DNA of 64,000 nt. It comes from Raillietiella orientalis (lineage: Eukaryota). The stretch covers positions 2,790,001-2,854,000 of the forward strand of contig JAYWIR010000006.1 of the NCBI GenBank assembly GCA_036172245.1, given 5' to 3'. The notes under the pieces are model-generated. The model searched no databases. It was given only the letters and a program-made list of their open reading frames with translations, and was not told the DNA's origin. Below, one piece after another: positions 2,598 to 60,149 of this stretch. Within the stretch, counting starts at the first letter, position 1. Each line of letters starts with the position of its first letter. The translations under genes were made by a program, and so were the position numbers.

Positions 2598-4122
2598 TCA
2601 CCCGGTCACGCCGGGGCGTTTATTTCTGAACACATTATATCTGCGGTATTAGACCCCGCTACGGCCAATAGTTCATGAGTCCTGCCAGGAAGCCGATTCG
2701 CAGACCGGCTTGACTCTCCTCGGCAGCGGACGGGATAGAGGGTAAAACAAAAAGAAAAATAAATGGAACCCAAAAAAAAAGAAACTATTTGAAGGGCCGG
2801 GAAGGGATCACTGTCCGCTGGAGGAAGAGTCCATCCTCTCCAGGATGCCCTCGAGGTCCCTCTGCATAGCTCCTAGGGGACCATCCGATCGCGATTCGCA
2901 GGTAGCGACCCGCGTGTACGATAGGGGAGGAAAGGGTGATCCGAAACGAGGCGGGAACATCGCCTTCGTTTCGGATCATCCGTGTCAACTCGAGCACCAG
3001 GGGTGTCAGCTCTGCGGCGAAGCACTGAAAGAACTCCGCCGACAGGCCGTCCTCCCCTGGCGCCTTACTCCTCTTGAGCCTTTTAATCGCGGTGATGATT
3101 TCACCGGTCGTAAAAGGCTCGTTGAGGCTTTCTTTCTCCTCCTCCCTTATGGCCGGGGCTCCACCCGGAAGCAGGAGCCGCGAGGCATCCCACTCTGCAG
3201 GTGCCCTGGCGTAAAGGGAGGAATAAAATCCCTGCACGAGGCGACGTATCGCTGCAGGGTCCGAGTGTTCCTGGTCCAGGTTGTCCAGCACGCTGGGCGG
3301 CCCGGATTGCCAGGCTTGACGCTCAGCTCCGGCTTTGTACTCGGCCAAGCGACGGACGTTAGGGGTCCTCGCGTAACGACGGGTGTGCAAATACGCCCTT
3401 TCGTTGCGGGACCCCTCACAAAATCCGGGGGGCAGGCGGTGCATGGGGAACTCCTCGCAGAACTGGCGGACCGAGGCCTTCATGCGGTCCCAGTCCGAGG
3501 GATTCTGGAGGGTGACGCCTCTCAGGAATCGGCAGAGATGTTCCGCCGCACCTGAGATCCGCGTCCACTCCCCGGGAAGACGCCACGCCCTGGATGGTGG
3601 TCCTTTGCGATGCATAACTTTGAAAATCAACCGGAAATGGTTGGACAGCGTCAATGGAAGTTTTCCTCGTCTGCCGACCCGTGAGCACAGGTCGGCGTCT
3701 AGGAAAACGTGATCGACGCTTTGGACCATTTCCGGGAGGTCCCTCAACAAGTTGAGTGCCCGCATCGCCGCGCACAACTCGTTGGCCACGTCTTTTTGCC
3801 CGCAAGGCACACCTGACAGCAAGAGGCTGTTCAAATCTCCACCGATCAGATGTGCCTTGCGTACGTTTATATCAGCCAGCCAGTCGCGCTTCAGGGTTTC
3901 GAGGAACCAGGAACGTTCCCCGTACCCGCATCTTCCGCTCGGAGCGTACACGTTTGTCACGACAAGGTCGATCGAGTTGGACGACCTGAGGATCAGCTGG
4001 CCAACCCGACCGTCCTTGTCGAAGCGTATGTACTTGACGACGGCGTCGGCTGCTGGCTTCACAAAAAACGCGATGCCACAGGTGTTGCGAGAGCCGCATT
4101 GCCAATACAACCCATCCCCTGC
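2598..4122 (-). mobile_element. L1/Tx1-type non-LTR retrotransposon, internally deleted (APE C-terminal part, linker and RT domain 0, fused to last ORF2 codons and 3' UTR)
   Basis: ORF 2785..4323 has APE motifs GSRNTCGIAF, DGR, NVYAP, GGDLN, SVDHVF and LSNH, then EPFTTGEI...KAPGEDGLSAEFF (pre-RT). At ~2930 it jumps to the family C-terminus (RDLEGILERM, frameshifted). The 3' terminal AATAAA/CCCGG hairpin is at 2601-2624. Confidence 0.88.
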
Positions 4123-4937
4123 CTGCACCATCGCAGGAGCAACCCGATCCATAGGTGGCTGGAGGACTTGCGAGCTGGCAGACGCCGCCACGCCTCGCAA
4201 CATTGCGAAGGGACTCCTTCGGTGGAGCGAACATTTGAGTGTGCCCCCCGAAGAACTTGTGGTCCCTTCCTCCTGCTTGAACACTAATGTGTTTCCTTTG
4301 AGCTGGAAACAGGACGTCATCATGCTGGTGCATTGGGGTTTTCACTCCAACCAGCGGACGAACCGTGTTTCCGGGGGAGTTGTCTCCCCGAACTGCAAAA
4401 GGTGCGGAGGAGCCGAAACGCTCCCGCACCTGCTTTTGGACCGCGGTGGAGGCTGTGGCGGAGGCTGGCCTCAGCTCTCCTGCACCAGGGGGACACCGCG
4501 AGGGACTTGATGCGCCGCTTCTTCACGTCAGGCGGCCTGCCTTTAGGTGCTGTCATCGCAACGGTCTGTTGCACCCGCGCCATCGACAAGGCCCACCGTG
4601 AGTTGGAGAAGCTGGCCATTCTTCGTCAACCCACCGGAATAGCTGGCGTGAGCATGGCGTCGGCTGCCGAGTGGGCCCATCTTCCAGAGGGCGTTAGGAG
4701 CGAGATCGCCAGCATGCATAGCCGGTTCTGAAAGACTGGAACGGCCGCACCAAAGACCCCTGTCCCTTACCCTCCCCATATTTTTACTTTTATTTTTTAT
4801 ATGTGTATTTTTATATGGTCCCCTCCCTCCCGTTCCGGACTTTCGGTATACCCCCCTTCGTTTCTTCTGTGTCCTTTGTCCGGGAACTCTGTTCCTGGAT
4901 AGTTTATTAATAAACGCCCCGGCGCACCCGGGTGACA
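4123..4937 (+). mobile_element. 5'-truncated L1/Tx1-type LINE (subfamily B), ORF2 C-terminus plus 3' UTR
   Basis: LVHWGF...SPNCKRCGGAETLPHLL (CCHC-like), then WAHL...MHSRF stop at 4731. U-rich UTR, AATAAA at 4909-4914 and hairpin at 4918-4932. Confidence 0.85.
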
Positions 4938-5120: not shown

Positions 5121-7410
5121 GGAACTGAAGCCTTTCAGAATCGTGATTGGAATCCAAGAATGCGCTTAAAGGGGAGTGTGTAAAGGGTGATCGGTTTCAA
5201 CTGTGGAAGAGGAAGCACGGAACTGAAGTCTTCCAGTGAGCAGCCTTCTTGAACCCACCGCGGCGGAAGCTAGCTGGGCATCTCGGGTTCCAGAGATGCC
5301 TTGCAATGTGCTCCGAGCAGCAGCGTTGGATTCTACGCACGAGAGTGCAGGCGGTGCTTCGCATTTCGCGTGTAGAAGCAGAAGAATTTCCGACCGCGAA
5401 AGCGCACCTGTCCTTAAAGGCGGCTTCGCAAATGCAGATCCGAGAAGGAAGATCTCCTCCCCCCGAAGAGGATGGGAAAAAAATGCGACACTGCCATTAG
5501 TATTTTTAAGCAGACCAATGACGGCCGTCGGAAGTGGAAGAAGAAACGAACAGAAATACCGAGGCTTCTATTGAAAAATCCTCCAAGAAAAGAAAGGAAG
5601 CAGGAAAAAAATCTTAGGTTGGCAAAGTGAGCTGAATCCGAGGAGACCGTATTCCCAGATGCGGGAGGGGAACAAAAGAAGTCTAACGGTGAAGTCGGAT
5701 GGAAGGGATTACACTCTTCGAACGTTTAAACAAAGTTCGTCATTACAGAGTTCGCTCCTACTTTTAGGATGGCGCGTGTTCCCTTTCCCTTCCGTCACTC
5801 CTGTTTTGTTCTCTTGTTCTTTTGGGAACCTGATTGCACGTCGCACCATAGGCCACTCGAGCAGAGCATCTCGCATCCCGAGATCTCAAAGTACTGCTTC
5901 TCGAATCCTTTAGTAGGGCGATCGTCGAAATTCTTTTCAAACAAAGGCAGATCACGTGCATGTGTAGACCTCGGTCTAGCAGAGCAGAAGAACAAAAAAA
6001 AGGAAATGTTGGCTGGAAGGAGTGGACAGAGAGGCAAGTTTTTTGTCTGAATCGCATGTCCTGGTGAGCTAGAGACATAGAACCGTCAAGATCCAACGTC
6101 TTTGTTCACTCGACCAAAAGTACGATGAATGGCAACTCCCTGGTCCATTTTTTCTTTTTTTTCTCAGCAATCAGGCGTTTGCACTTTTACGAAAGATACT
6201 CAGAACAAGCGATACTCATAGCTACCGAACAAACCCCAAGGAGACCATTTGCTACCGTTGCAGCTCCCTGCCGCGAAGAGCGTGCAGCCACCGCGAGATG
6301 ACGGTTGATTCAGGATTCAGCATCGCTTTCAATTCCATGATATTTTGAGACTTGAAACTTCATCTCGACTTTCTGTTCCACTAGGAGTTGACAGGCATTT
6401 GAAAAACCACTAACCTAAAAGAGCACTGATGGTTGTAGCAGCTGCTGAAAACCGGGAGATTAATCGCTGCGTGCAGAACAGCATTTGCAGACGCACTGCA
6501 GCATCCAGATCAAGCATATTTCGAGAGCAAAAGCGAAATTGATGCAGCCGCATTTGAAGGAAGAGAATGCCTCTCCAACGGGAGCGAAGGAACGCAAAGA
6601 TGGTTGCCATGTCTTTCTTTGTGTGTCACAAATCAATCCAAGGAGGCTGCTGTTCGACTTATGAGGGGAGGGCGGTCGCGAGGTTCACTCTGCTTTGCTC
6701 TCCTCTCAAGAAGAGTCCCCATGGTAAACTCGGCCAGCACCGATGTTAGTCTTCTCCTGTGGAATAACAAGGAAAGCAAATATGCGGAAGCTGACTCTAC
6801 CCTTCCGGGCGGAGTTGAGCGCACTGTATCGACACTTTACCCTGCTTCCCCCTGAAGCCTTAGAAGGCTTTTATATCAGGCTGGATGCTCTCTTGATTAA
6901 AGCCAGATGATCCAGCGTGCTAGAAGCGGAGATTTCCGCTCCGAGCGCTTTTAGCAAACCTTGGGCAAGAGGCATCCACGTCAGTCCTCCCTGAGCTATA
7001 CAACGGGATTTCAATTTTGAGTTCGACCCCTGTAGCGGGCTCAAGAGAGATACCCAGGTCACCAAAGTCCAGGTACCACAAGTCCTGACTTCCGAAAAGA
7101 ATCACTCGAAATAGTTCCATTCCCCCTTAGAGGTCACCCTGACCTGCTACTATGGCGACGTACGTACTCCTGATTCCAGACTCCAGGAACACGTGCTAGG
7201 CCAGGTTTTTCACCCGGATTTTTCGGAGCATTTATTATTGAAATTTGATATACAATTTCATAATAAAGTCAGTTTTTCAAGTTTTTTCAGGCAGAACACT
7301 GGTTCTGCCTGTCTTGGGCATTCGTCCTTACCGGCCCTGAGGCCAGTGAGGTCTTTTTCGCTGGCAAAAGGGGAGGAAAAAACAGAAAAAAAGACGAAAA
7401 AAACAGTCGG

Positions 7411-9190
7411 AGTCCCTTGACCTTTAGCAGCTACTTTGAATTGGTGCTGAGCATACGTGGTGACTCTGGCCACTCTGTCGAGCTCGTGCCCGGTACGTCT
7501 GCCGTGTCGGCGGATGCCGACGATCTTCTACTTGCTCCCCATGTCCTCCCCGGCGTCAGCACTCGAGAACTTCGAGTTCAGCTGCGGGAAGGGCTTCTAA
7601 GTGAACAGGGAAAAATCGTCGGTGGGGCCAGTTGGTGCGACATGGGCTGGAAGGTCGGACTAGATCTGCTTGGAAATCCCCAGGACAGGTACTTAAAGCT
7701 CTAGGCGTTTCGTTAGGGGAATTCTGCCTAGAAGAAGCGTAGTTGGACCGTCTCCAAAAGGTAGAGATGGCGCTCGACCCGTTTCTGGAAGGCAAATTTC
7801 ATTTGTCGGAACAGGCCGCGTTCCGGAACGCAATCGCCGCTACTCTCCTCCCTCCCCTGCTTTTTGCTTGTCTTGTCCCCCGAGAAGCGAAAAAGCGGAC
7901 GAAGGACCTCCCAAGAATTGTCTGCAAACCTACCTTGTGGAGGTCCCGAGTCCAGCTGAAGGATTTGCCTGCACCGCGCCTGGATGGCGGCCTCGACCTC
8001 ATGACTTTGCTTCAGATGGAGATTCAGCTATGATGGCGAACAACGGCCATCGCGGCAAAGTACCGGAGCACCCTTCAGTACGTTCCTGCATGTCTTCTCT
8101 CTAGCCGTGTATCCCATACGGAAGGACTCGCATCCTACTATCTATGCTCCCTCCTCAAGGTTCCAAGATGCGGTCTTCTCGGTCGCTATTCGCCCTGGCG
8201 AAGGAAAACTGCTCATTGGTTTCTGCTCCATCTCCCAACTCTAGCGCTCGGCTAGAAGAAACAGTTGGCATGTAGGCGAAGCTGAACCAGGCAATCCCAG
8301 AAGTGTGAAACTGTCTGGACTCGGGAACCACGCCCGATGCTTGTTGCGGAGCGTCCTGGGATGTCCCAGAAGGAGCACGTGGGCGGAAACGAACCTCCTC
8401 GCTTCAACGATGTACTTCATGAGGAGGGCACTTGGCAGAAGCCAAACGACGAGGTCTCCTGCGACATCGCAGGTACAATGGAAACCGATGAGTAGCTCGA
8501 CCATAGGGCTGCTGACGGATGCTGCGACCCCGAGTGTCCTTCCACGAGAACTACGGCGTTGTGGAGAGCCACTTGGTATTCATAACGGAGATCTGGAGTG
8601 GCCCCTAGTGCTTAAGAACAGCAGCGCTCTCCCACTGCAGTCGGCACTTCTGCTGCTACGCTGGCGTCTTTCCTGCAATTCTCCCCGACATCACTGGACG
8701 CTAAGAAGGGCAAGCCCGGACTGTCACAAGTGCGAGGAACGGGAATCCCTCCTGCACCTATTTGTGGACTGGGTTTCCCTTCGGCACTTTCGAGAAGGCT
8801 TTGCTGCGACTCTCGGAACCTCCGGCGGCAACCCCAGGGACGTTGTCCGACTTCTCTTTGTGCGTGATGCCCTGCAGCCAGCCGCAGCCTCAGCAGCTCT
8901 CCGCTGCCTACAAGGGATCGTAGAGGTCTGGAGCGGAGCCAACAGAAGAAACGAGAGGGACGTCGTCCAGTGCGCAGTTTGCTTTCTGCAGATTGTGGCC
9001 AGATGGCCCCACCTGGGATCTATTCGGATGGACCTTGCTGACATCCTGGAGAGGATACAGACTCTCTCCAGAAGACTATGATCCCTTCTCGACCCTCTAC
9101 AATGTTTCAACCCTCTACAGTGTTTCCCCCTCCCTTCCGCTACTGAAGTGAACCTCGCCGGTCTGCAGATGGACAATCTGGCAGGTCTAC
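7411..9190 (+). mobile_element. 5'-truncated, decayed L1/Tx1-type LINE (RT domains 4-7, thumb, CCHC-like domain, partial 3' UTR)
   Basis: SPLTFSSYFELVL (domain 4), SADADDLLL at ~7507-7533 (YADD equivalent), VNREKS, LKALGVSLG, PRLDGGLDL and DCHKCEERESLLHLFVD. C-terminus RWPHL...DILERI with stop at 9081. Several stops and frameshifts. Confidence 0.85.
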
Positions 9191-9342
9191 TGTCACTGTC
9201 ATAAGTATTATCAGTGATTCTAAGTCCAATACATTAATTCTGCCATATTAGAATGTTGTTGACACCATGCGTGTCCTAGCTCAATTTGTAAGTTTGTTTT
9301 GAACTTTGGTGAACGCTCATGAGTGTCCGGGTGGGAATCGGG

Positions 9343-11584: not shown

Positions 11585-12429
11585 CCGGCTGTAGGACCCT
11601 TGATGAGGGTCAGCTTTCAGTTCCAGCCAGTCTCCAGGGCATCTGGGTTCCACCAGTGCCTTGATGCTGCTGCACTGGGACCTCCCGTGAAGTGTCCGCT
11701 GGCACCATTGGACATGGACTCGAGATGTGCAAGGTGAGGGGAGCGGGAATCCCTCTCTCACCTCTTAGTGGACTGCGTCGCCCTCCGGTCCCTTTGGAGA
11801 CTCTTTGCTGCGACCCTAGCAACCCTCGGAGGCAACACCAGAGACATTTTAGAGCGCCTCTTCCTGAGCGATCGTCCTCGCGCCGGTCTCATCCCTAGCG
11901 GCACTTTGCTGCCCAAGCGGCGGGACCGTGGCCTCATGGAGCAACGCCAGAGGAGGCCAGGACGACAGGAAAGTCATCTATTTTGCTGCTCTCTTCATGA
12001 GAATCGGTCAAGATGGTCCCATCTGGGAGTCATGAAACAGGAACTTGTGGACATCCTTAAAAGGATGCAGATCAACCCTATAGCACGCAGCGATCCCTTC
12101 CCTAATCCCTCATTTTTTTACTGTATGTTTTTCGTTTTATTTCTTCCCTTTTGGTTTATCTCCCCTCCCCCTGTGCTTCTGAGGCAGTTCCCGGAAGGTT
12201 CCTTCTCGTAGTTATAAATAACTTGTTAGGATCAAACGTCCTGCTAAGGACGTGGATATTTGTTTTTAATAAATAAGCGCCCCGGCTTTACCGGGTATCA
12301 ACCAGTGCCGCAGCCGAATATGCCGGCCTGAGTCAACCTGCGGGGGGCTGATTTCTACGTGGGGATTGGAACCCGCAACGCTTGGAGCCATGTGAAGAGA
12401 CCGCAGCCACCACGGCCGCCAACGCGGGC
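11585..12429 (-). mobile_element. SINE 5' fragment interrupted by a LINE at 11661-12300
   Basis: 11590-11660 aligns to SINE 18372-18440, and 12301-12429 continues into the tRNA-like head. Confidence 0.75.
11661..12300 (+). mobile_element. 5'-truncated LINE (subfamily A1) inserted in a SINE, 9-bp TSD
   Basis: LMLLHW...ESLSHLLVDC...RWSHL...DILKRM. AATAAA at 12268, hairpin at 12281-12295, ends GGTATCA. ACCAGTGCC at 11652-11660 and 12301-12309. Confidence 0.88.
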
Positions 12430-15400
12430 AGTGACCCTTGAAAACAGTCGTGAATATGTGACGGAAAATCCTCAGTTAGTTAATTGCTATTTCATGAACT
12501 GTAATTTACACTATACGTGGCATTCGACATGGAAATTAAGGTGATGTCTCCTAGGGAGATTCAAGGTACACTTCATTTATACAATGTCGCGGGCATTCAG
12601 AATATCGGTATTTTAGTATATGTTATTCAGAATACACCACAATACACTGAAGGAAAACGGCAGCGTAGAAAAATGCAATTCGTGAAAATTATTGAAAAGG
12701 AAATGAAGGGAGGGAGAAAATGTAGCTCATGGTTTCCGATACCTTCGGGCAATATGAGTTCAAAATTACATGACCTGAGAGCGGCATGCCGTAAAAATGA
12801 GGGGACGGTTCGAGGTGGATCCTAGCGAGCTACGAGGGTGGATTCAAAAGAAATGTTCTGGTTCGGTACTTAGCAAAGGTTTGCACAGAGGCAGATCCCC
12901 TGCGGACCGTGTACCGAGGCGTGGGTAACCCCTTTTGGCTGAAATGAACTCCATAGCCCACCGCGAACGAAGCCAGATGTGAGCAGCTTCGCCTTCCACT
13001 CAACGGTCAAACATTCGGAAAGGTGGCGCAGAATGCGGCGAAGCATCTGACGCTCCATGCCTTGGCAGTGCCATTCCAAACGGCGCCTCTCAACCTCTGC
13101 GCAAAAGTGGAAGCAGCTGACTTATGCGAAACCCTGTCTCCGTCTGCTTCGCCCTCTTCCTTCCTTGAGGAATCCGTGGAAACGCGAGCTGCCGAGCTAC
13201 GGTGACAGACAGCAGCGCGAGTGTAAGAGAAATTCAACCTGGGCAAAGAGCGCGCCACCGACACCTGTCAGCGACGATCGCTTCGCTGCTGCTGCCCATT
13301 GCTCCGTCGTCCCCGCTGCTCTTGCCTCCTTCCGGGTGGATGAAGACGAAGCGCTCGCTCTTGGCGTAAGACTGGCAATCCACACGCGAGCGCTGCAAAA
13401 CCCGTAGAGTATCCAACCCACAAAGGGACCAATTCCAAGCAACTTCTTCTCCTTTGGTATTACTGATTGCCCCCGATGAGATCAGTTTAATCAATCATCA
13501 ACCTCCTTTGTCTGTCAGTGCAAACGGGCGCGTTGCATAAGATCACCGGAAATGTGTGGGGAACCTACTCCAGATGAAGAGGGACTACCCAAAATGACAG
13601 AAAGCAGATGGCTTCGCACTGACCCGTCTCGGAAGCACTTAAGAATCGGTTACCGGTGCTCCAGGAGGTCGCTGTTTGCTGTCCTGAACCGCCAGCCGCG
13701 GCTCTGGTGAAAGAGAACAGGACACCGCGAGCGGAGCCAGATGGCGAGGACTGGTTCCCCATTCCGCCTCTAGAGGGACGTCAGCGTCGATCTGCGTTTA
13801 CCTGGTGGGTCTATCGTCGTATCACGCCCAGCATCCGGAAAACGACCGCACAATGAGAGGCCACCTCAAGAAAAAGCAGCCCTTTGTGGAGGTGGTGAAG
13901 AGGCCAGGCTGAAGTATCTCATTTGTCGCTGTTAGCAATGAATCGTCAGTCGAGTTCTGTCGCAGACAAGTCGATTAGACTGGATGAGGGAGAGGGATCC
14001 ATAACAACCCTCTGGGGTGGACCATCATCTCCGTTCGCATCATCCTCTGAGCGAGAGCAGAAGAGTGTCCACCCCACCTGCCTGTTCCTTCGAGAGCACC
14101 TCGGGTGCGTTCAGGAGCGCTCGAGAAAGAAAATGGAGGGACGATCGTCTGCTTTCTTGTCTCCTCGTTCCCTCGGCGCTCGTGCGGTTCTCTGGATCCG
14201 CCGTGTGGAGGACACACGAGGCACAGTGACCCATAATGAAAACTTGGCATACGGCTCCAGCATCCAGATGTGCATGAGAGGTGGCGCGGAACGAGGCAAA
14301 TCTGCCACGCAAGCTCTGCAAGATGCCTGGCAGATTTGTTCGAATTCTGGAGGGGCTACTCCCGAGGGGTTGCGCCAGAACGGCTAAAGAGAGAAGTGGC
14401 GCAGAAATTCCCTGAGGGCCATCTTCGAGAACAGAACGAAGGAGGCGTTCCACTCGTGCCATCTACCGCAACTTGCCGCCTGAGCTGCTCGGAGGCAGGG
14501 AGAGGTGGCCTCGAACCACCTAGTACCGGAAGTCAACCAGGAACTTTCTCATGCGTGGTACTTTGGCAGCAGCGCCGTCCAGCGGCTTCCCGGAGGGAGC
14601 AGAGCAAAAGAGGGAGAGGAAGAAGACCTCCACCCCTCGGCGGCCGAGAGGTGAGGGAGCTTGTTGGCGCCACCACTGCGCGTCCCAAAGTCAGGGGTGG
14701 TAGGAGCCGTCACATGAGCACCCTCCGAACCCCTGGTCGTTTCCTGTGCGTGTTCGCTTTGGTGCTCCCCTCGGGACGGGAGCATGAGGCGACTGGCGCT
14801 CTCTGCTGACCGGGTTGTCCACTGAGAGGAGCAAAAGCACCTCTTGCCTAAAGACAGCGCCTCGGAGAATCGCTCCAGCAGACGCAGGGCGTTCGATTCA
14901 TGGCCGTACTGCCACTCACGACGTTCTTCAGCGACTGATGTTTGCTCTCAGAAACCAGCCGCCGCGGTTCGCCCTCCATCCCCTCAGAGATCGGGACTCC
15001 ATCCCGTGTGCATGTGGAACCAGGGATCGCCTGCATCCTGAGCAGGCAACCAGTGATCGGAAGAAGATGAACCGAGGACTTTTTCTCCCTACCCCCTCTT
15101 CCCTTCCCCGATGCATCCACGTCCGCTCTCGCTTTGGGGTGCGGTCCTCGAACACAGCTGACCTGTGGGGCGGCGTTCTCCTCCGAAACAGACTTTGCTT
15201 TGTCCCAAGTAGGGGTTGCATTCCCGCACAAGCACGTTTATTGTTCCAGAACGCATCTTGCAGTGGCCTTCTCATCCCACATTGCCGTGCCATAGGGAGT
15301 ACGTGAGCCGGCCAGGAACGGAAGGGACCACCCTCACCGGAGGCGAAACCTGGGAGGAGTAGAGGAAGAGGGCGGAGGACCAACTAAGAAACAAATAATC

Positions 15401-17819: not shown

Positions 17820-18614
17820 TCTCTTCTTTCAGCTTTTTTCCATCGGTTATTAGGGAATGCTTAAGAGCCGCTCGCCTCCTTAAGGCGGCGCTCACGAAGC
17901 GCTTCGACGCTGTCCACGCTCCCCGAGGGTACGTGTCACTCTCCAATTTGGAGGGTGACCCCAAAAGGAATCACCCTATGAATCCAGGAAGGCTCCAGAG
18001 GAAGTTCGTTCCTCTTACGCTTTAGGAACTCCGAAGGGAACTTTCTCTCCCTTGCCCTCGAAGGAACCTCAAGGTTTGTGGAGGTCGCTCCTGGTTTCTT
18101 CTCCAGAGGGCACCTGGAAAGGATCCACTCCTGGAATTTCTTTTCAAGAGGGACCTCCCGGAAAAGATCAGTCCCATATTTTCTCCTCTGAAGAGAACTC
18201 GGAAGGGATACTTCCGAATTTTCTCTAGAGGGCCGCTCCTGAAGAGAGCAGTGCGTATTTTGGACACTCTGGAGGTGTCAGTGCACCAGTTCCATGGTAC
18301 GAGATAGAGCGGGTGCCCCCGGGTCCATTCTCACAACCGAAAGGGAACCTGGAAAGATTCCTTGATTCCCTGAAGAATCCCGGAGGGTCAACTTTCAAAT
18401 CCCGGCCAGTCAACGGGGACATCCAGCTTGCACCAGTGCCCCACCCGAAGCCCGTGGACAAACCAGCGTCATTCTTCTGGGGTGGGGTGGGGTGCAGAAC
18501 TCGATACCCACGACGCACCTCTCGTCCTCGGCGTCGATTCTCCACGTGGGGATTCGAACTCTCGACGCTCGGTGCCACGCGCAGGGACCGTAACCACACG
18601 GCCGCCCATGCGGG
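17820..18614 (-). mobile_element. tRNA-derived long SINE-like element, near full length
   Basis: B-box-like GTTCGAATCCC (rev. of ~18549-18559), hairpin-unit body and 3' hairpin. Collinear with the copies at 30.0-30.8 kb and 33.1-33.9 kb. Confidence 0.8.
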
Positions 18615-21600
18615 TACGGCAGGAAACGTGTCCCTTCGGGGGCCCCGTCTTGGAGTTTCGGGTCTCTTCTACTTTTGGCTGCCCTGGGGCTCATCAGAAT
18701 GGAGAACAGGGAACTCCGCGCGGCTGCAGCCCGCGTCTCGGAGAAGCAGAGGAAGGTGTGCTTCCCTGCTCCGGGACACTCCCGCACTGCGTCTGGTCCT
18801 TGTCTGACGGATGTTCTGATCCTGGGCGGAGGCTAGCCCCACGGGGGCAAAGTCAAGCGCGTTCCGAATTGCAGCTTCGTCGCCACGGAGCGGAGAGGAA
18901 CTTTCACGTCTTTCAAGGCCACGAGCGGCGGCTTCCCCGGGAGGAAGAAACGGTCCATTTTTCAGCTTCCAGAAATGTTCGAGCTCCATCTGACAGGTGT
19001 CACGTGCATTATCCATCTTCATCCAGCTGGAACGCAAAGCGGGCGTTTTGGCTGCTAGCAGTGATGTGAGGCCGCTGTTTGTGGGCGCACGAATTCCGTG
19101 GAATACCCCCAAGCCGTCCTGCTCTCGGTTCTTGATGTCTTCTCCGGGCGCGGACGTCGTTTGGCTGTCGAAATTCTCGTCCTTCGGGGGACAACCGCTC
19201 TCGGCTGAGATGGACAACTTGCCCGCTTCTAAAGAACTAACTTCTAGAGAGCCTGCTAAAGAGCGAACTCGTCCGGAAGGGTCAGGGGCGGCAGAACGGA
19301 GCTCAAAAGAGGAAGTGCAGGACCAGACCTGCCGGAGGAGCTCGGTTGCGGCAGCCGAGGGTGAGAAAAGGGGAGGAGCTTTTTCGGATGCTACGGAGGA
19401 ACGTCAATGCGACCGGAAGCCCCTAGCAGGCTGAGGCTTTCTTCGAAACCCAGGAAGCCAGCGGCTGCATGAGAGGTGGCCCAAGAAGGCGCCAGCACAG
19501 CAGCTCCGATGGTCTTTAAGATGGCCTCGAGCTGCGATCAACAGCCGAAAAGGTTTGTCGACAGCTGCTCTGCTTCCTCCCAACCGTTCCATACTCGTCT
19601 AACGTCTCTTCCTCTCTCGATCTCCAGAGCACCAGTGATCGGTTTTCATGAACACGAACATGAACGCATCTCGAGATGCCGTTGCTTCGCCTTATGTGTC
19701 TTTTGCGACGTGCTGCGGGATGCTGCTGGATAGATGGTTGGGAAGACATCCTCCTCCCGCTACAGACTCAGCATCTCTGATGCTAGACTTCAGGATTTCA
19801 GGATTTCTCTGTCGATATCTCCGGAGACAAACAGGAAGATGACGCCGGAATATCCGGATTCCGGGACATCCTGAAAATTCCCTGCATGTGAACCCGCGTG
19901 CTGCGGACGGAAAAGGGAATGAAGGAAGGAGTGTACTCACCCCTTTTCCCGTCTCTGTCTCGATGGGTCGGTCAGACGGATCCCGTTCCCAGGAACGAAA
20001 TGGAATATCCCATCGAGGCGGCCTTCAGAATACAGTCAAAGTGCTGCAGTAAGCCAGCGTTCGAATCCGACTCGGCCTGCATGGCCGCCTGCCGCTGACC
20101 TGGGCGCATGACAACACGTAATCCCAGTGCACAGCCACGAAACACGCGAGTCTGCGCACGCGCCCCTGAGGCTAGCCGCAGAAACCGCCCTTCACACGGG
20201 AACGGAAGCGAGGGAAATAAATAAACCGATAGATGAATTCCGTGGGGAACGTGGCAATCGCGCGAAAAAAGTCTTTCGTTTCTTTTCCACGCTAAGTACT
20301 CAGGAACCGTTCACCTGGGGGCTCTGCTCATAGAGCTCCTTAACGCTGCCCCACGCCACCCAAGGGTGCGCGTCAACTCCTCCAGTCAGTTAGTTCACGG
20401 CTGCCAACGCGGATGTGTGTGGCTGCGGTTTCCTCTTCACCCGACGGGAGTACAAACGGCTTGCGTGGATTCTGGCGCCATCTATACACGGTCGTCGCTC
20501 TCACTCCTGGAATCGGGTACGGATGTACGCATCTCTCGGTGGGCCGACGTTGCAGGGTCGTCCACCTGGAACTGGCTCTCCTCGAACCGCGCACCGGGGT
20601 TCGCTGCAACGACCAGGCTCGAGACGGTTCGGTCGTAAGCAGCTCACACCGCGCCACTGATGTCTACCACTTGTGATCCAAGGAAGGCGTCACAGCATCA
20701 CAATAGGCTGGAAGTTGGATCTTTTCCATCCAGCTCTCAGCTCGGGGATCAGGCGACTCGTGACGTGCTTCTTCTTTACCTGCACTGTTGCCGAGTCGCA
20801 TGAATAATTTCACGATAGCGCCCAACGGACCCCCGCACAGATTCGTGTAGCGCCGCAGCTGCTGCGCATGGGAATGAAAGAAGGCGGAGTGCTTTGTCGT
20901 GATTCACAGGATCCGTCTGTGGCACTTTCCTTGGAAACTCGAGCTCTGCTACCGTTCCCCTGACTGCCATTTGAGGTCAGTCGTTTCCGGTTGGCGCATT
21001 CACTCTCTGCTTCCATGCCCTCTCTCGAGTCCGTTTCCATGGAAGCTCCCCTGTTTTGACGCCTCCTGCTCGGTCCGCGCGTATTATCTTGGCAAAGCCT
21101 TCACTCTCAAACGAGATGGGCGTTTCCAGCATCGGCACAGCTTCCGTCTACTGGGTTCAGCAAGTCCCTTCTCCTCAGATAACTGAAGGTCAAATTTTCC
21201 ATTTTGCCGGCAGTTGTGGTCCATTCAGCGCAAGCGCCTCTGCGTCTGCGTAGCCCAAGGTTGCTCCCCTGAGTGGCTTCCTAGTCTCTGGCATCTTCAT
21301 TAGCAGAATCTCAGGGTCAGAGAAAGGAATCCTTGAACTCGTGAAGAGCTCACTTCCGAGTCGTTCTGATCTGTGTTTGGTGATGTACTCGACCCACTCC
21401 GGCTTGGGTGTACGGTTCGTGGGAAACTCTCTTGTGGTCAAGACACGAAAGAGGATGTTCTCTGGAGGAATTTGGAACGCACTTGAGGTTGAAGAAATCG
21501 TTGCCCCTTAGCATTATCTTGCTTTGCTTACACTTGGCATCCCGGACGGTAGAGCAACCCCTTGAGGCCTCGCAAATGCACGAGCTGATGGGAACGGAAT

Positions 21601-24203: not shown

Positions 24204-24389
24204 CTGCAAATAGGCATTTTTACCTGGAGACAGCTGCGACCTCCCCCTGCTGCCACACCGCAGAAGGAAAGCGGAAGGAACTCTCCCGACGTTCGCATTT
24301 CTCCCTAAAGAAACCTATGTGGATATGAGGAGCGCCAGCTGCAGATGCGATCCGCATCTCCCTGCGGCTAGAAGCATGGCGAGGATCGG

Positions 24390-24760
24390 AGAAGCCCGTC
24401 CGAGAGGCTGCGGCCTCCTCGCGCGCGGCGCCGAGAGTCGAGAGTCGCGGGTTCGAATCCCCACGTGGAGGATCGATGCCGAGAACGAGGGGTGCGTCGC
24501 GAGTTTCAAGTTTCCCCCGCAGGATGGCGCTGGTCGGCCTCGGCTGGCTTCGGGTGTGGCACTGGTGGAAGCCGGACGTACCCGTTGAGTGACCACCATT
24601 GGAAGTTGACCCTCCGGGGTCCTGACAGGAATCCAAGAGTGCCGTTTCCCTTCGGGACTCTTTTCCAGTGGTGAAAATGGGACCGTCCCTACCCGATGGG
24701 CGGGGAACCTCCATCGCGTGCCATGGAACTGACTGATACGCCCTAGGGGGGGGTTCCTTT
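24390..24760 (+). mobile_element. SINE, 5' half
   Basis: GCGGGTTCGAATCCCCACGTGGAGGATCGATGCCGAG head and an empty GGCACTGGT site at 24558-24566. Confidence 0.8.
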
Positions 24761-26689
24761 CGCATTTTCTGTGCCCCGCACATGTGTGGTCGCGCCGGCA
24801 GCTGCGAGAGCAGAGATGCCCCCCTTTGTCCGGCGCACACCGCACGAGCGATGAGAGGTCACGACCAGAAAGCGCTGCACGCACGTGAGAGGATGCAGGC
24901 TCTCCTGTACAGGCGAACTTCCGCACAGATGGAGGCATCGAAATTGCGTCCGCGATGGCCGTCCGTTGCGTTATCTCTCTTTTCACAGATGATTTGTCCA
25001 AGACAGCATCTTGCTGAGGAATCGTCTTCGGAGTGCCGTGTGATTCACGGGCTGGCAATAAGTGCTCCGTCTGCTCGCGCATCGCCTTGGAAGGCGCCAG
25101 GACCATCACGTCATGACAACGCATTGTGGTCCTGGATTTGCGTCCAGCTGCAGGATCACAATCGATAATCCACGGGAAGAAGCTGCTGGAGCAGCAAAAG
25201 CGCGTGCCGCTCGCCACCTCGGAAAACTTTCCCGGAGGAAAAGTTATAATGGCGATGGTGATGAGGCAAACTTGAAATCGCGCATCGTGATTGGTTAATG
25301 GGAATGAGCGTGCGATCCGCAGTCCCGACGCGCACACGACGTGCGCCTCGACCCGCTGCCGGCGCGGCCACACGTGGTCTGCTGCGACACGAAAGGTCGT
25401 CGAGCTCTGGTTTAAAGACTCAGAGATGGTCGGGACGGAGTGCGTGGAAAGGACTTTCCAAACTGTCCTGTCCCGCGGATGCAGCCCAAGGAAGCTCTTG
25501 GTTTGATGGCATTATCCATCTGGGAGACTGTTCCAGGATCGCGGGGTGGAAAACGATGAAGAGTCAGCAGTGCTTCCTGCCGTTCATCCCAAACAAGTAG
25601 AAGATTCAGATTGGACTATTGGGAAAGATGCGGAAACGCACCTGAAGAATGAAACGGAAGTCTTGGAGTGAGAGTTGCAGTGGAAGGAGGGAATTCTATC
25701 GGTAGGAAAAAGAACCAGGGATGCAAAGATTCAAGGAATCACATTCGGAAACGCAAGTCCAGAGCTAATCTGTGCTTCTTCATCCAGCCTCCTAAATATC
25801 AACAGTTCCAAATTTTCTTCCACTGCTACTCGTTTATCTTTTATTTTCCAGAACGTTGGAGTGTCGACACGATGATGCAAAAGTTTGCCAGAGGCCCGTT
25901 TTGGAACTTCTCATTAGGGCGGGAGGATAGACAGCTGCTGCCTTATCCATGAACCCTTTGGGGAAGATTCGCGAAACTTTGGGAGCAGTCTGAGAAAGAA
26001 AGCGAAACCCGAGTTGCTCCAGCACCGTGCAGATCACGCAGCGGCAGCGAAACCTTTCATCCCGAAATACATCTATCCAGGAAGGAATTACGAGGAGCAC
26101 TGGAAACTGGTGGGAGTAGGTCTTCTTTAATTGCATGGCAAAGAGGAACAGAGAGGACCACATCCCAACGGAGGGAGAAATCCGCGGAGAATAAAGGGAA
26201 GCAGAGAGCAATGTGCTCCCTCACTGAGAATTCGCCTGCAACATCAGAATCCAGAAACCTCATCCAGGAAAACAGAAATGTTGCTCTTTCTGCAAGGCGG
26301 GGGATTGATGGGCAGCAGGGATGCACGTTCACGGCCTCATTGGTGGTCAACTGCATCCCGCTATACTCTCATCCATCCCGTTTATCAGACGCCTGCAGTG
26401 CCAGTGGATGTGGCAGGATCTGCAGTCGTTCCCAAATGGCGTCAGTGGATCGACGAACGCATCAGCGGCGAACGCGGCAAAGGGAGTGCCTTCCTGAATC
26501 CAGGAGAGGGTGAGGATGTCTCGAGAACTTGTCGTTTCTTGCAACAGTCGCTCGCTTTCCTTCTTCTCCCCCTGAGGCATTATCTGTACCTTGTTGTACA
26601 GAGTCAGCCGCGATCATCGACGGTCAACCGAATCAGCGCTTCGGGGATGGTGGAAATCCTTTTGGGGATCTTTTCTGCCTTCGCTGCTT

Positions 26690-33136: not shown

Positions 33137-33897
33137 TTTTTTTTTTTCGGGTTTTCTTTATTTGGGGAGGAAGGGTTCGCAAAGTGCTGAAGAACCGTTC
33201 GCATCGTTACGGAGGCTCACGAAGCTCTTCAAGCACTGTTTGCTACCCAGGGGCGCGTATTAACTCTGCAGGTTGGGGGTAACCCAAAAGGGATCACTCT
33301 ATGAATATAGAAAGGTTCCGAGGGCAGGGTCGGTCCCCCGTACGCTTGGTAGGAAACCCTCGCCCTGGTCATCTCCAAAGGGAATCCCAAATTTCATTTC
33401 CTCCTGAGGGACCCCTGGATGTGGGGGCCTCTTTTCGGTTCTTCTCCGCAGGGAATCTGAAAAGAATCCTCTCCTTGTTTCCTCCTCCCGAAGGAACGCT
33501 TCCCAATTTCTCTGGAGGGTGCTCTCCGAAGGGAGCAGTGCATTTCTTCACATGCGGAAGAGGCGACCCCCTGAGAAGGGTATTGCAAGTCCCATGGTAC
33601 AACCCCAGTTTCACAACCGAAGGGGAACTCCAACCGGAGGGCTCTTCTGGATTCCTGGAAGGATCCCGGAGGTCAACTTCCAATCCCGGCGGCCAGTCAA
33701 CGGTGACATCCAAACAACATCGCCAGTGCCATACCCGAAGTCAGTGGGCCAACCAGCGTCGTCCTGCGAGGAAGAAGGACTCGAAACCCACGACGCATCC
33801 CCCGTTCTCGGCGTCGATTCTCCACGTGGGGATTCGAACCTGCTACGCTTGGCACCACGCGCCGAGACCGCAGCCACGCGGGGCCGCCAGCGCGACC
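33137..33897 (-). mobile_element. SINE, full length with poly(A)-like tail
   Basis: Head at 33820-33897, 3' hairpin at 33184-33236, then AATAAA and an A-run on the element strand (T-run at ~33137-33147). Confidence 0.82.
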
Positions 33898-35370
33898 CAA
33901 GTAAAGCTTATGATGTCTTGAATCGAGGATTTGTCTGAAACTTAATGTCAACAGGAAACCGAAGAGGGGATCTGAGGAGGATCCGAGGATGGAAGTCGCT
34001 GCCATTCGAATCCTTTTTCGAGCTTTGAGAGAACGTATTGAGCGACGAACCCGTGATTTCCTCAGGAGCTCCCTGCGCGGACTCTAGGTAGCGAACCACG
34101 TCAGAACACCCACACCAGTGCCAGGAAGACAAAACCGCTTCTCCTTGAGAGCAGGGGCGGGAGTTTCGTCGCTCAGTTTGAAAATCATGGAAGGCAGAAT
34201 CCGATCAATCTCTTCTGCCAGTGCTTGAAGAACACAGAGCTCGAGGACATATTGCTGTACGGAGAATGGACGCATGATCCATGAATCGGGAGCGGCCAGA
34301 CAGCGGGTCTCTACCTGCAGCAGGTTGCCGTCCCACGAGTTCGCTCCCCGCGGACACGAATTGCTTTACGTTTTCCTCCTTGCCTTGCACGTATTTTTGC
34401 AACCTGTCCCCTTTCCTGACGTCTCTAAGCGGATTGCGAGAGGCTGGAGATTTTCGTTTCGGCAGTGAAAATGGAGAACGGACCAGCTCGCGAGGACCTG
34501 ATTTTTTTTTCCTCTGCCCATCGGTGTGAAAACCCCTCGAAGAAGAACCCGGTGGCCACCACATAACCTCGGTTTTCGAAACCTCGTGGTCGTCAACAAA
34601 CCGAAGCTGAATGGAAACCTAATTTAATTTGTGGATAGTGGACAAGAGGGAAAGGTTTCTGAGAGGACAAGTCTTGGGAACGCTAGCAGGAAGCGTGATC
34701 CGGAAGTCGGAATAATCCTGACGGATTCCGTGGAAAAAAAATTCAGAGTGTATCGGGACATCAATTATGTCTTGGAATGGTGCAGAGCGGGAATTATTTA
34801 GAAGGGAAAGAAAACCATCCATTTCGTCCTGAAGCTGTTTTCAGTAGTCAGTGATTTGCTTTCTTTGTAAACCTCTTCGAGCTGCAAATCTCCACGCTGA
34901 ATGCTTCTTTGTTCTCCGCTTTTACCATGCGTCAGACCCCCATATGGCGCTGATTCGTATAACGCAGCGGCTCAGCAACGTCGGCGGTCTTCGTATGCAG
35001 CAGTAAAGCAACAAAAAAAAAGTTGGTTGGCCACTCTCTGTTATTTTTGCTCTATAAAAAAAATCGCTTTTGGGGGATGGTCTTTTCAACGGAACAAGAT
35101 GCACTTTTCAGAAAGAACGATGGAGCTGAAACTATGGAATTGTCCAAGCTGAAGAAAAATCAACAAAACTCCAAAAGTTCCTTTTTTTTTTTTTTTTTTC
35201 TGAAGAGTAAATGATGAAAATTTCCCCCCCCCCCTTTTGTTTTAAAGTGAGATAATAAATGTTCTACTGTTATTGAGTTTAAGGCACATTTTTTATCTTT
35301 TGCAAATACTATTACATTATTCGTATATAGCCCATAGGGATAGTATAACGCGAATTTGTATGAAGAAGAA

Positions 35371-36322: not shown

Positions 36323-36533
36323 CTGTGCAACTCAAATGGAAAACCAGGCTGATTTTCGGCTCCGTGGACAGCTGACATTCGTAGAACCCGTTGTCTTCGG
36401 ATCTTGTGTTTCGAATCTGCAGCGTCCAGCCGTCATTCTCTTGGGAATTGAAAATTTGGAATCTCTCGTCTTTGATGTAAGTGAACGTTCCGACGGTCAG
36501 CAAGTGGGAATCCTTGTTGCGTATCCACGTGAC
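36323..36533 (-). CDS. dpr: Dpr-family Ig protein exon 3 (second half of Ig1: VTWIRNKDSHLLTVGTFTYIKDERF...WTLQIRNTRSEDNGFYECQLSTEPKIS)
   Basis: CTTTCAG| acceptor and AG|GTAAGC donor. 211 nt, phase 0 to 1. Close match to the Dpr Ig1 signature V(S/T)WIRxxDxHILTVGxxTYxxDxRF...WTLQI...DxGxYECQ(V/I)STxP. Confidence 0.92.
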
Positions 36534-45717: not shown

Positions 45718-46595
45718 TGACACCCGGGTGCTCCGGGGAGTTTATTTGTGAGATAAACAAACTCTGCTGGGGACCATCGGCCCTACAGCATCCGAAAGAG
45801 TTCGGAACTTGCCCAGTAACCGGCACGCAGGTTGGCGAGGTTCGCCTCGGCAGCGGAGGGGGAGGGGGCAAACAAAAATAAAAAGAAAAACACTATTTAC
45901 TAAAAAATGGGAGGATTAGGAAAGGGATCACATTCCGCTGGAGGCCGTCCTCTACATTCTTTCCAGGATGCTGGCAAGTTTCATCCGAGTATGCCCCACA
46001 TGGGGCCATCTTGCTCCAGTCTTCAGGAAGCGTAGGGCGAAGCAGGTGACGTCCCTGTCGTGCCGTCCATCTCTAGCGCAGCTCCAGGCTGCCACAATCT
46101 CAAATTGGCAGCAAACAACTGCTAGGGATGCGGCAAACGAATGGGCGTCGCTCGCAAAGAGGCATTTGAGCACGTCTCTGACAGCGTTCACTGGTGCACC
46201 TAGGACCGTTGCATCACGCAACCGGAGGGCCCGGAGGGCAACACAGTCTACAAGCAAGTGCAGGAGCTGGGATTCCCGTTCTCCGCACCTGCAGTAGTTG
46301 GGGCCCACAGCCTCCCGGGTCCAGTGAGAGCTGAGCACGTTGCACGGGATACCCCAGTGCAACAGCAGAAATGCCTACTTCTGCCACTTCAGGGGGAGGC
46401 CCCGGTTGTTCTCCAGCGCTGTGGGCTACTCGAGGTCATGCTGTGGGATTCCCAGCAGCTCGCCACAGCGCAATAGTCCTTTCGGTGGGGCACTTGAGGT
46501 CTCAGCGTCTGTCAACTGGGTCCAACCACCTAATCCCTTCTTTCTTCCAAATATTTCGCAACTGACCTCCCATTTGGTCAAATGGTTACTGCCCA
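45718..46595 (-). mobile_element. 5'-truncated LINE (subfamily A), imperfect ~17-bp TSD
   Basis: LLHWG...YCRCGERESQLLHLLVDC...RWPHV...SILERM stop at 45952. Terminal AATAAA and hairpin at 45723-45746. Flanks are GGCTGGAAGCGCATTGT (45700-45716) and GGCTGGAGGCACATTTT (46596-46612). Confidence 0.85.
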
Positions 46596-48350
46596 GGCTG
46601 GAGGCACATTTTGGGGCAGCACGTGGGAGCAGGAATTCCAGAGGTAGCGACCTAAAGATGACATTCATCTCCCATCAGACGTACCTCACGAGTCACTGTC
46701 AGTATCGTGTGGTATTTTTGAGGTCACTTGGATGTCAGAAGAGCATCGGAAAATTGAAAGTGGAAACCACGTGCATCCAGATTTGTGCGTTGATGGTCTA
46801 CCCTCGTGGGTGGGCTAAAAACGACTTTATAAGAGACATGTGATATCATCCTGCATATAAAATGAATATTTAAACAATTCTGATCGATAGATCTGAATTC
46901 ATAAACCAAAAGTCCCTTCAATGAAGTGGAAAATCAGTGCGCCGTTGGAGTCTAACTATTTTGAGCCTTGAGTCGTGATACTTCAAGCGATGTGAGGAAT
47001 TTTCTGGAGAGCACATACCTTTGAAAACGATTATTCTTGCACACTCGTACGGACAGAGGTTTCGGGCACTCCCGTGCTCTTTACTTGTATCTTTGTGCAT
47101 CCGCTGCATCCGTGCATACTGATCTTCATTGAAAAGAAGAAAAAAAAAAGTGCCGAAAAGGATTCATGGTGCTGATTTCCTGCAAAAATTGTTTATTGAT
47201 TTATTCGAAAACATCGAGGGGATATGAGTCGGATAGAATAAGCATGATGATGAGTTCGAGCAATAGTAACGGACAAACAGCAAACGGAAAGGCAAAAAAC
47301 TAGTGAATACATCGAAAGGTTGCAGGAACGACTGTGAAGCTCAGCTGTTGAAACTCTCATCAGGAAAAGGCTGATGTGAAGATTTGAGGGTTTCTCTCGT
47401 CGCCATGATTGGAATCGGAATTCTGCGAGCGCGCAAGCCGTTTTGCTTCTGCTGACACCAGAGTGTGCGTTCTGTCTGCTCCAATCGGGTCTTCGGGACC
47501 CAATCGTCTTTCTTCGCAAACACAACCTGTTGCGAATGATAATGAAGCAAACTCGATTTCGAAAGATGAACTCGAGGCTGACATCTGTCAACCACTTAAT
47601 TACGAAAACGATTGTGTGTTAGAGGACGTCTTCAGGCCATCCATCATGCTCAGTTAGGCCAGATTTTCTTTGAAGATCACCGAGAAAAACGGGGAAGGAG
47701 AGCAACAATTTGCTCTCTTTGCGAAATGAGAGATCCAGAAACGCCGAACTGTCTTATGGGGATGCCGTTTCCACATTGAAAGAAACGGATGCGCCGGCGA
47801 GGGCTGCAGCAGGACATGATGCTGTCGAGCAGCTCTCGTTTCAAAAGCGCCGGATTTCCCCGATCATGGAGATGCTTTCGTGCTTTCGAATTCAATGGCC
47901 AAACATCGGACCATGCCAAAGCATCATCAGCTCACTTCCTTCTAGGCACTCGTGATGGACAGTTCGGTGTCTCTGCGCCTGAATGCGGAAACACTGAGCT
48001 GCTTCATCAGCGAATGCAAGAATCTCCGCCTTGAAACTTCAAGAAGTTTTCTGGAACCTCAACAGATTGCATTTGCGCCTCGCATGCAAGTCGTCATGGA
48101 TGGCATCTAAATGGAGAAACTGAGGATGGGAAAGGCAAACAAGGAATGTCTTTCAAAGGGTTTCCACCTTTCGCATCCGTGCAAGCGCTCCTACTCTCAG
48201 CTCTGCCGAATTCTGAGTCGCTGCGGTCATTGCGCACGCTCTAGAAATCAAAACGGATTACCTGCTGTGCCATCCGGCAGCATCCTCGATGCATCAGGGG
48301 CTCCTGGCGCAAACTACAAGCGTCCAATTGAACTCACGGTCGATGTTCTC

Positions 48351-49780
48351 GGGTTCGCGTTGGCGGCTCAGAGTGACTGCGGTCTCCACGCGTAGTGCCC
48401 CTCATTGCGAGTTCCAATCCTCACGTGGAGGATCGACGCCGAGAGATGCATGCATCGTGGGTTTCAATTCCCCCCCTTCCGCAGGATGATGCTGATTGGC
48501 CCGTGGGTTTCGGATGCGGCACTGGTGGAAACCGGAAACTCCTGGCTGAATCCGTTGAGTGGCCTCCGGAATGGAGGTTGATACTCCGGTGTCCTTCCAG
48601 GGCTGCTCAAGGAGCACCAGTTCCCTCTGAGGTTCCCCTCCAGTTGCGCAAATGAAGCCTTCATAGCGTACCATGGATCTGGTTGATGCCCATCTCGAGG
48701 GGTGGCCTCTCCAGAGTGTCGCTGTTCTGCTGTTCTGCCTCTTCAGAGCTCTGCTCCCTCTGAGGTTCTCTTCATAGGAGGAAAGGAGCGGTTGCCTTGA
48801 AGGCTCCCTCCAAAGAAGAAATGAAGAGTGGTCCCTCCGGGGGTCCTATGAAGAGAGTGGGGTTCCTTTCGGAGGCAACCAGGGTGATGCTTTCTTCTCA
48901 AGCGTGAGAGGTTTTAGCTCGGTCATGTCATGACGTTCATTGCAAAATAAACAAGTCTGAGGAAAAATGTATACCCTCGAAAAACAAGAAAGCCAAAAAA
49001 AGGAGATCATCGGCGATGACCACCGGCACTCAAGCTGACTTCCAAAAAGAAAGGAACGGAGGGAGGTGGCCATAAATAAATAAAAAAAGAAAGGAGGTAA
49101 GGATAGGGGGTCTTTGGTATCAAACGTTCTTATTCTTCTAGAAGCGACTCTGGATGATGGCCATCTCCCTGGCGACTTCTACCAGGTGAGGTCACCTTAC
49201 TGCTACCCCCATGAAGGCTACTGCCATGCTGGTGGCCTCTCTTCGCAGCGAACTTGCTTCTAGCACATGGAGGACTGTCACTATTGCGCGCGGATGCAAC
49301 ATCTCGTTGCGACCACGGCGCCTTTCTCCAGTCCGCCTCCGGTAAAGAAGCGCAGCAGCAGGTTGGTGGCAGTGTCTTGGGGTTGATGGAGTGCCGAAGC
49401 GAGTCTCTGCTACAAGTCCTGAAGGACACTGCAGTCCCACGAGAGTTATGGAAGCGATTCCATTGCCCCGCACCTAAGACAGTTTGGGGATGCAACTACA
49501 CCGGAAACCAGGTGTCTGCGCTGATTGCACTGGAATTTCCATTGCAAGAACAGCAGAACGTCTTGTTTCCCAAGCGTGAGAGGAACGGATTCCTCCCTCC
49601 GAAACTCTTTCCGGATTCACAGGGTGGTCCCCTTCCGAGATACGCTTAACTTGAAGAGTCAACACGCACCCTCGGGTGGAATAAGCAATGTTAAGAGCTA
49701 TGAGAGCCCCTAGACGGATAGTTCTTAAGTATTTACCAAACCAAAAAAAAAAACTAGAAAAAAGGAAAAAAAGGAAGCTG
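48351..49780 (+). mobile_element. SINE, full length, interrupted by a LINE at 48912-49570
   Basis: Head and body at 48351-48911. The SINE resumes at 49571 (CAAGCGTGAGAGGAACGG...) through the 3' hairpin remnant and A-rich tail at ~49740-49770. Confidence 0.8.
48912..49570 (-). mobile_element. 5'-truncated LINE (subfamily B) inserted in a SINE, perfect 13-bp TSD
   Basis: KQDVLLFLQW...SPNCLRCGAMESLP...IIQSRF stop, collinear with the copy at 4123-4937. Degenerate terminal motif AATGAACGTCATGACATGACCGAG. CAAGCGTGAGAGG at 48899-48911 and 49571-49583. Confidence 0.88.
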
Positions 49781-59840: not shown

Positions 59841-60149
59841 GTGGCCTCCTCGGTCGGACCTGGAGACAAGGGTCTACACTGCTCAAGGAAGTACAACTTC
59901 CAAGGAGTACAACCCTGACCCAAGTTAGGTCCATAATGGAATCCTCCCTCTTCTATGAAGTTCGTCGAGCAGTTCCAGCGAACTCGGGGTGCCCTCCGAG
60001 CGCTGCCAATGCTCGCTGGCGGCAAAGGGCGGAGCTATCCCGCACGAACGCGTCCACTAAAGTCTTCAACAGGCAAGAAGGGGAAGAATTTCGTTCTCCA
60101 CCCGTAGGGACAAATCGACGATGATCTGTCCGAGGGGATCACCGTCGAC

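Follow-up and report, generated by a model that had tools for sequence, protein, structure and literature searches.

The DNA analysed here is a window of 64 kb (the whole stretch of 64,000 nt), composed of repeat-dense eukaryotic DNA with a GC content of 54%, in which two retroposon families meet: a LINE, represented by several diverged copies, and a shorter repeat of about 500 nt, which is treated here as a SINE. Two of the LINE copies, called A and B, each interrupt a copy of this SINE (Table 1). The sole host-gene-like signal among 136 stop-to-stop ORFs of the window is an Ig V-set open frame (36177-36647, minus strand; Pfam E 8e-8, above the cut-off), from which the source can be recognised as an animal.

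Table 1. Positions of the two nested insertions, of uninterrupted SINE copies and of related LINE copies in the window
Feature	Position	Strand	Remarks
Host SINE A, piece downstream of target site	11593..11651	-	model ~200-256; nhmmer, SINE profile
A, left target-site duplication ACCAGTGCC	11652..11660	.	read directly
LINE copy A, 5'-truncated	11661..12300	+	ends GGGTATCA
A, right target-site duplication ACCAGTGCC	12301..12309	.	9/9 vs left copy
Host SINE A, head	12310..12441	-	B-box-like motif at 12363-12373
Host SINE B, piece downstream of target site, through tail	58846..59118	-	model to ~496; profile match
B, left target-site duplication ACCAGTGCTGTACCT	59119..59133	.	12-15 nt
LINE copy B, 5'-truncated	59134..59676	+	ends AGGTGTCA
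B, right target-site duplication ATCACTGCTGCACCT	59677..59691	.	12/15 vs left copy
Host SINE B, head	59692..59842	-	B-box-like motif at 59778-59788
Uninterrupted SINE, empty site 18432-18440	18124..18638	-	profile and exact word match
Uninterrupted SINE, empty site 24558-24566	24376..24877	+	exact 12-mer TTCCACCAGTGC
Uninterrupted SINE, empty site 48518-48526	48327..48829	+	exact 12-mer TTCCACCAGTGC
Uninterrupted SINE, site with one mismatch (GCCAGTGCC)	33427..33923	-	alignment and profile
c2k, related LINE copy	2598..4170	-	59% to A in common 3' region; 3' flank not SINE
c4k, related LINE copy	4172..4937	+	47% to A; ends GGGTGACA, then AACAAACG; 3' flank not SINE
c7k, short related 3' fragment	7210..7420	-	3' flank not SINE
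c8k, related LINE copy	7351..9230	+	60% to A; C-terminal RT half, CCHC-like region, 3' UTR
c46k, related LINE copy	45720..46515	-	61% to A; ends GGGTGTCA, then AACAATGCG; flank not SINE

Read directly along the plus strand, locus A runs from the SINE (...TTCC) through ACCAGTGCC, the LINE and a second ACCAGTGCC back into the SINE, and locus B runs from the SINE (...TTCC) through ACCAGTGCTGTACCT, the LINE and ATCACTGCTGCACCT back into the SINE. Both LINEs are antisense to their host and their 3' ends abut the identical SINE base; when mapped to a profile derived from the remaining eight SINE copies, the two breaks share one model position, ~199/200 (the halves of A cover model 24-206 and 191-256, those of B 31-206 and 186-496). 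A first-pass annotation of this DNA had claimed the same SINE position and the same antisense orientation for both LINEs, together with target-site duplications matching at 9/9 (A) and 12/15 (B) positions, and direct reading and profile mapping confirm this description; the duplication of B is best given as 12-15 nt, because a CC(T) compatible with SINE and LINE alike leaves ~3 nt of play in the placing of its 5' border. Two other origins of this arrangement were considered and rejected: 3' transduction of the SINE flank, since the SINE continues 5' of the LINE, with a duplication, and a template-switch chimera, since the LINEs are antisense and flanked by duplications. Host SINE A stops at model ~256, without the ~250-nt tail present in B and in the eight other copies, and is either a 3'-truncated SINE or the product of a later deletion. 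In a low-coverage sequencing run (X1; 8% of sampled words, contigs mostly of single-read length), one contig that matches the window exactly runs across the junction of A; it probably derives from the same organism, hence it is no independent evidence. A paralogous contig of the run (record 8), about 80% alike, aligns with 12197-12318 and carries the AATAAA-hairpin segment that B lacks; it extends just 18 letters past the A junction, where the rule was 31 letters, and it is taken as only a hint and not counted as a third junction.

The two inserts are 74.4% identical in a gapped BLAST alignment and 78.7% identical over 511 ungapped columns, while all the other pairs among the eight LINE copies compared reach at most 62%, in agreement with the earlier view, formed by eye, that they are the most similar LINE pair. 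The first base of B aligns with ~11755 in A, which places the truncation points ~94 nt apart (about 100 nt had been claimed), with A reaching further 5'. The extra 5' stretch of A is genuine LINE, since it can be aligned with c46k and c8k, and a CCHC-like (Cys/His) knuckle is encoded there, ahead of ...SHLLVDC. Copy A contains the end of ORF2, with this knuckle and one stop, followed by a 3' UTR, an AATAAA and a 5-bp terminal hairpin; copy B is frameshifted and lacks the 31-nt segment with the AATAAA and the hairpin. Both retain the end part of ORF2 only, the endonuclease and the reverse transcriptase (RT) being absent from both, and are old, broken copies, which show the 5' truncation and the target-site duplications of variable length typical of LINEs.

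The hairpin, formed by CCCGG, a 5-nt loop and CCGGG, is predicted in three of the four copies having that segment (12256-12300, 45720-45764 on the minus strand, 2597-2641 on the minus strand, and 4893-4937), where the AATAAA and the 5-bp hairpin are kept and the loop letters vary. The 3' UTR of A and B closes with GGGT(A/G)TCA, and the 3' ends of the six copies in which they are clear (A, B, c46k, c4k, c2k and c7k; c8k and c49k were left out) read GGGT(G/A)(A/T)...; a poly(A) tail was found in none of these six. A retained hairpin at a 3' end without poly(A) fits the recognition of the RNA by the RT through its structure. A protein search with the C-terminal ORF of A among longer proteins gave no match, and a metagenome scan for the 3' hairpin pattern returned 31 stretches, which, apart from the pattern searched for, fitted neither the LINE nor the SINE profile and are chance hits.

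The host repeat is short, non-coding and dispersed, with many diverged copies, as is usual for SINEs. Its profile detects 19 pieces in the window, for a total of 5,396 nt (8.4%), among which eight uninterrupted copies align over the length of ~500 nt and two are interrupted; the target site is spanned by ten copies in 64 kb, namely the eight uninterrupted ones and the hosts of A and B. Pairwise identity among the copies is 58-78%. On the sense strand, in the head near the 5' end of the copies, lies a B-box-like motif, GGTTCGAANCC; at no more than one mismatch it has 15 matches in the window against 6.45 expected. A tRNA origin of the SINE head, as had been suggested, is unsupported: ARAGORN predicted 0 genes and Rfam gave no hit at the gathering score, nor, for one head, at E up to 10; the B-box-like GGTTCGAANCC alone is present in the copies. 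Because no tool supports a tRNA origin, we call the host, from its sequence features, a SINE-like Pol III-type repeat, using SINE for short. Its tail is made of a variable number of ~40-nt units, in which hairpins of the GGGAACC/GGTTCCC type are possible (e.g., 18124-18300, 30288-30450, 56750-56900). Similar ~40-nt units run beyond the end of the SINE profile, for which reason the copies' own 3' ends and duplications are hard to fix.

Empty versions of the target site are found in the uninterrupted SINE copies. The four proposed by the first-pass annotation stand in part: the word ACCAGTGCC is exact at 18432, 24558 (minus strand) and 48518 (minus strand), while the site at 33722 reads GCCAGTGCC, with one mismatch. 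For the more general word ACCAGTGCY, the window has nine occurrences where shuffled sequence would lead one to expect 0.77; three of them, at 30093, 34114 and 44896, are outside SINEs and have no LINE. Occupancy is thus two of the ten site-bearing SINE copies, which are also two of the four copies with the exact 12-mer TTCCACCAGTGC.

The nature of the element can be deduced from its relatives in the window rather than from A and B. An open frame of 518 codons in c2k contains part of a putative AP-endonuclease; c2k also holds an L1-like N-terminal extension and the start of an RT, and an internal deletion has fused these parts to the 3' UTR and the hairpin. Its match to Pfam Exo_endo_phos (E 0.0029; 17.8 bits) is below the curated cut-off of 24.5, its neighbours in the ESM Atlas carry Exo_endo_phos and RVT_1, and a stretch of it matches residues 401-510 of human L1 ORF2p with an E of 5.7e-18. 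Over 139 residues, c2k shares 61% identity with P0004, a database protein fragment of 619 aa that contains RVT_1 (Pfam E 4.7e-24); full-length database relatives carry Exo_endo_phos. In a tblastn search with P0004, positions 7351-8177 of c8k were 45% identical to its RT residues 269-550, and c8k, by joining this RT half to a C-terminus of the A/B type, ties that C-terminus to an L1-like RT. An RT of the non-LTR type is thus documented for the family through c8k and P0004, outside A and B. A Pfam scan of the 136 stop-to-stop ORFs of the window (two of them scanned twice) detected no RT. P0004 is the sole close relative among ~5.8 billion clustered proteins, and the next representative, a sea turtle product, is 34% identical; public protein sets contain little of this LINE family. 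P0004 matches L1 ORF2p at ~1e-39 and R2 at 7e-17; the PDB contains few LINE clades besides L1, so the likeness to L1 ORF2p does not separate L1 from Tx1. Since the RT and the N-terminal extension resemble those of L1 ORF2p, the family is assigned, on the basis of sequence similarity, to the L1/Tx1 group, with Tx1 and L1 not told apart; the names of the best RT relatives point to no clade. A poly(A) or A-rich 3' tail, the hallmark of the L1 clade, is missing from the six copies with clear 3' ends.

As for the arrangement of these relatives, c2k (minus strand) and c4k (plus strand) lie head to head and meet near 4170, and the long apparent ORFs at 3713-4510 (plus strand) and 2785-4341 (minus strand) are each partly the antisense of the other copy. 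At 61019-61180 (plus strand), tblastx gives a weak match to the part of the LINE that precedes the Cys/His knuckle, probably a further decayed LINE fragment.

From the junctions, a course of insertion can be proposed. Because the 3' end of the LINE marks the first nick, and is the same in both events, the endonuclease would make its first nick between GGCACTGGT and GGAA, on the sense strand of the SINE. This placement, already suggested by the first-pass annotation, follows from the junctions, and in the SINE consensus the B-box-like motif is ~102 nt upstream of it; it is uncertain by 1-2 nt, because the CAAACAA of c4k and c46k shows a possible LINE tail at the junction, and in A and B, too, 1-4 terminal bases of the junction could be LINE tail instead of target. 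The freed 3'-OH would then serve as primer for reverse transcription of the LINE RNA, starting at the hairpin-bearing, poly(A)-less 3' end; this synthesis would halt early and at differing points, and the second nick, on the opposite strand, would follow at a distance of 9 nt in A and ~12-15 nt in B, giving unequal duplications. A precise first nick combined with a loose second one is what a sequence-reading AP-endonuclease would give. The precision would come from recognition of the target sequence, presumably by the endonuclease itself, and pairing of the RNA 3' end, or of read-through SINE sequence, with the nicked DNA may add to it. On balance, we favour sequence-directed nicking by a LINE subfamily of the L1/Tx1 group, with at least two independent insertions at a fixed SINE site. 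Most copies of the subfamily may lie at this site, as do both of the A/B-subfamily copies in the window (n=2). The wider proposition, that an L1/Tx1-group LINE lineage of an animal genome targets, base-precisely and with a single orientation, a site in the body of a SINE of the Pol III type that is present in high copy number, is put forward more tentatively, as a serious possibility.

The main rival is a preference for a short motif, for example A-(A/C)-C-A, exerted by the endonuclease or by pairing of the RNA tail (...TCAA/CAAACAA), with the SINE merely supplying many copies of it. The four distant relatives with clear 3' ends (c46k, c4k, c2k and c7k, at most 61% identical to A and B) all lie outside SINEs, and therefore the wider family is not SINE-restricted; the flank of c46k starts with AACAATGCG, which agrees with the SINE target at 6/9 bases, that of c4k starts with AACAAACGA, with the first four bases alike, and the SINE makes up 8.4% of the window. 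However, a 4-base word occurs hundreds of times per 64 kb and is unable to explain the choice of the identical SINE base twice, and the flanks of c2k and c7k (GAGCTC and AAAACC) are without the motif. Moreover, beyond the common GGGTG(A/T), both c4k and c46k continue with CAAACAA, and this shared word may be LINE tail rather than target. A short-motif preference is rather unlikely, with an appreciable residual chance of being correct.

A second rival is tethering to the Pol III machinery: a Pol III factor bound to the B-box would bring the LINE to active SINE copies, with insertion about 100 nt away, as for the TRE elements of Dictyostelium. The distance of ~102 nt from the B-box-like motif and the fixed orientation with respect to the SINE agree with such tethering, and retrotransposons that target tRNA genes have been described (PMC5006619). 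Against it, the identical base used in both insertions suits the reading of a sequence better than the measuring of a distance, the searches of the SINE head with ARAGORN and Rfam found no tRNA-like fold, and the host SINEs had diverged before the LINEs inserted in them. Tethering appears improbable.

A third rival is a single insertion copied later by segmental duplication, by gene conversion between SINEs or by retroposition of a SINE-LINE composite. Copying would easily account for the occupancy of 2/10, and the tree of the SINE copies, which is star-like, does not contradict it: an AU test on 177 columns leaves a sister clade of the two hosts unrejected (p 0.28). Since this tree does not decide, independence has to be judged from the junctions, the flanks and the divergence. 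The 5' junctions and the lengths of the duplications differ, and the left duplication of B holds 4-6 more SINE bases than that of A, so that the B junction cannot be derived from an A-like one by simple deletion. Comparison of the flanks outside the SINEs, ~1 kb on each side, which had been indicated as a way to exclude duplication, revealed nothing in common, the best match having an E of 0.24 over no more than 20 nt. Furthermore, the two host SINEs differ at 59/166 columns (35.5%) and the LINE inserts at 109/511 (21.3%; Fisher p 4e-4), a difference that persists for transversions alone (14.5% vs 7.0%, p 0.007), with a CpG density alike in hosts and inserts; the hosts are about twice as diverged as the inserts, and therefore divergence of the SINE copies preceded the insertions. 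Nor are the hosts nearest neighbours: the SINE of A is closer to the copy at 18k (74%), and that of B to the copy at 30k (72%), than the two hosts are to each other (64%). The insertions are thus two independent events, as the first-pass annotation had held, and a single copied insertion is very improbable. The coincidence of two random insertions, for which nothing speaks beyond the small sample, is negligible as a cause of the shared site, since an arithmetic estimate from ten copies in 64 kb gives p ~6e-6 for one pair to share SINE position and orientation and ~2e-4 over the 28 pairs among the eight LINE copies.

LINEs with sequence-specific targets are known from several systems. Dewa inserts in tRNA arrays and Mutsu in 5S. 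In PMC4494074, LINEs of the Tx1 clade are described as preferentially inserted in piggyBac, Mariner, Harbinger and LTR elements: Tx1L in Tx1D (piggyBac), Tx1-Mar in Mariner-N4_AMi, Tx1-9_AMi in Harbinger, and Tx1-8_Crp and Tx1-4_AMi in LTR elements; the same source assigns Keno to U2 snRNA genes and Kibi and Koshi to microsatellites, so that the precedents of Tx1 and Keno cited in the first-pass annotation stand. The Tx1-clade elements resemble the present case in being LINEs of the L1/Tx1 group, here with a putative AP-endonuclease, that occupy a fixed place in another interspersed repeat, with 5' truncation and target-site duplications. They differ in their targets, since a SINE-like Pol III-type repeat is absent from those listed above, and the case described here consists of n=2 insertions of an element with a 3' hairpin and no poly(A). 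Keno, Kibi and Koshi share with it the sequence-specific homing to multicopy sequences of an animal genome (PMC4494074); the targets of these elements, and those of Dewa and Mutsu, are host genes or simple repeats and their specificity is strict, whereas here the target is a retroposon and n=2.

Human LINE-1 provides the best solved match of the N-terminal extension and the RT of the family (ORF2p; PDB 8uw3, 8sxt, 8c8j), and the family resembles it in the putative AP-endonuclease of the relatives and in the C-terminal Cys/His motif. It differs in its poly(A), which all six copies with clear 3' ends lack here, and in its nick site, GGCACTGGT/GGAA being unlike the T-rich one of L1; the nearest database relative outside the cluster is only 34% identical. 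The TRE elements of Dictyostelium (PMC5006619) are likewise found at a set distance from a Pol III promoter of the B-box type and in fixed orientation, whereas the base-exact junction of the present LINE speaks for the reading of a sequence. A full-text literature search gave, among the matches listed, no description of a LINE targeting a SINE; the supplementary target alignments of PMC4494074 are outside its scope. The A/B subfamily is probably a new member of the LINEs that target other transposons, with a new target, the SINE.

Two old copies are, for now, a lead rather than a system that can be called established. LINEs with specific targets illustrate how the recognition site of an AP-type endonuclease can become a long one, and there is interest in them as tools for inserting genes at chosen sites; a LINE landing in a SINE would add a new class of targets and offer a natural case of one retroposon family inside another. 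If most copies genome-wide were found at the SINE site, this would be the first LINE described with a SINE-specific target, as far as the literature search shows. If sequence-directed targeting of the SINE is true, one retroposon family would be the renewable landing pad of another, and nested copies of the two would reflect targeting and not chance, which bears on the ageing of both families and on the reading of repeat annotations.
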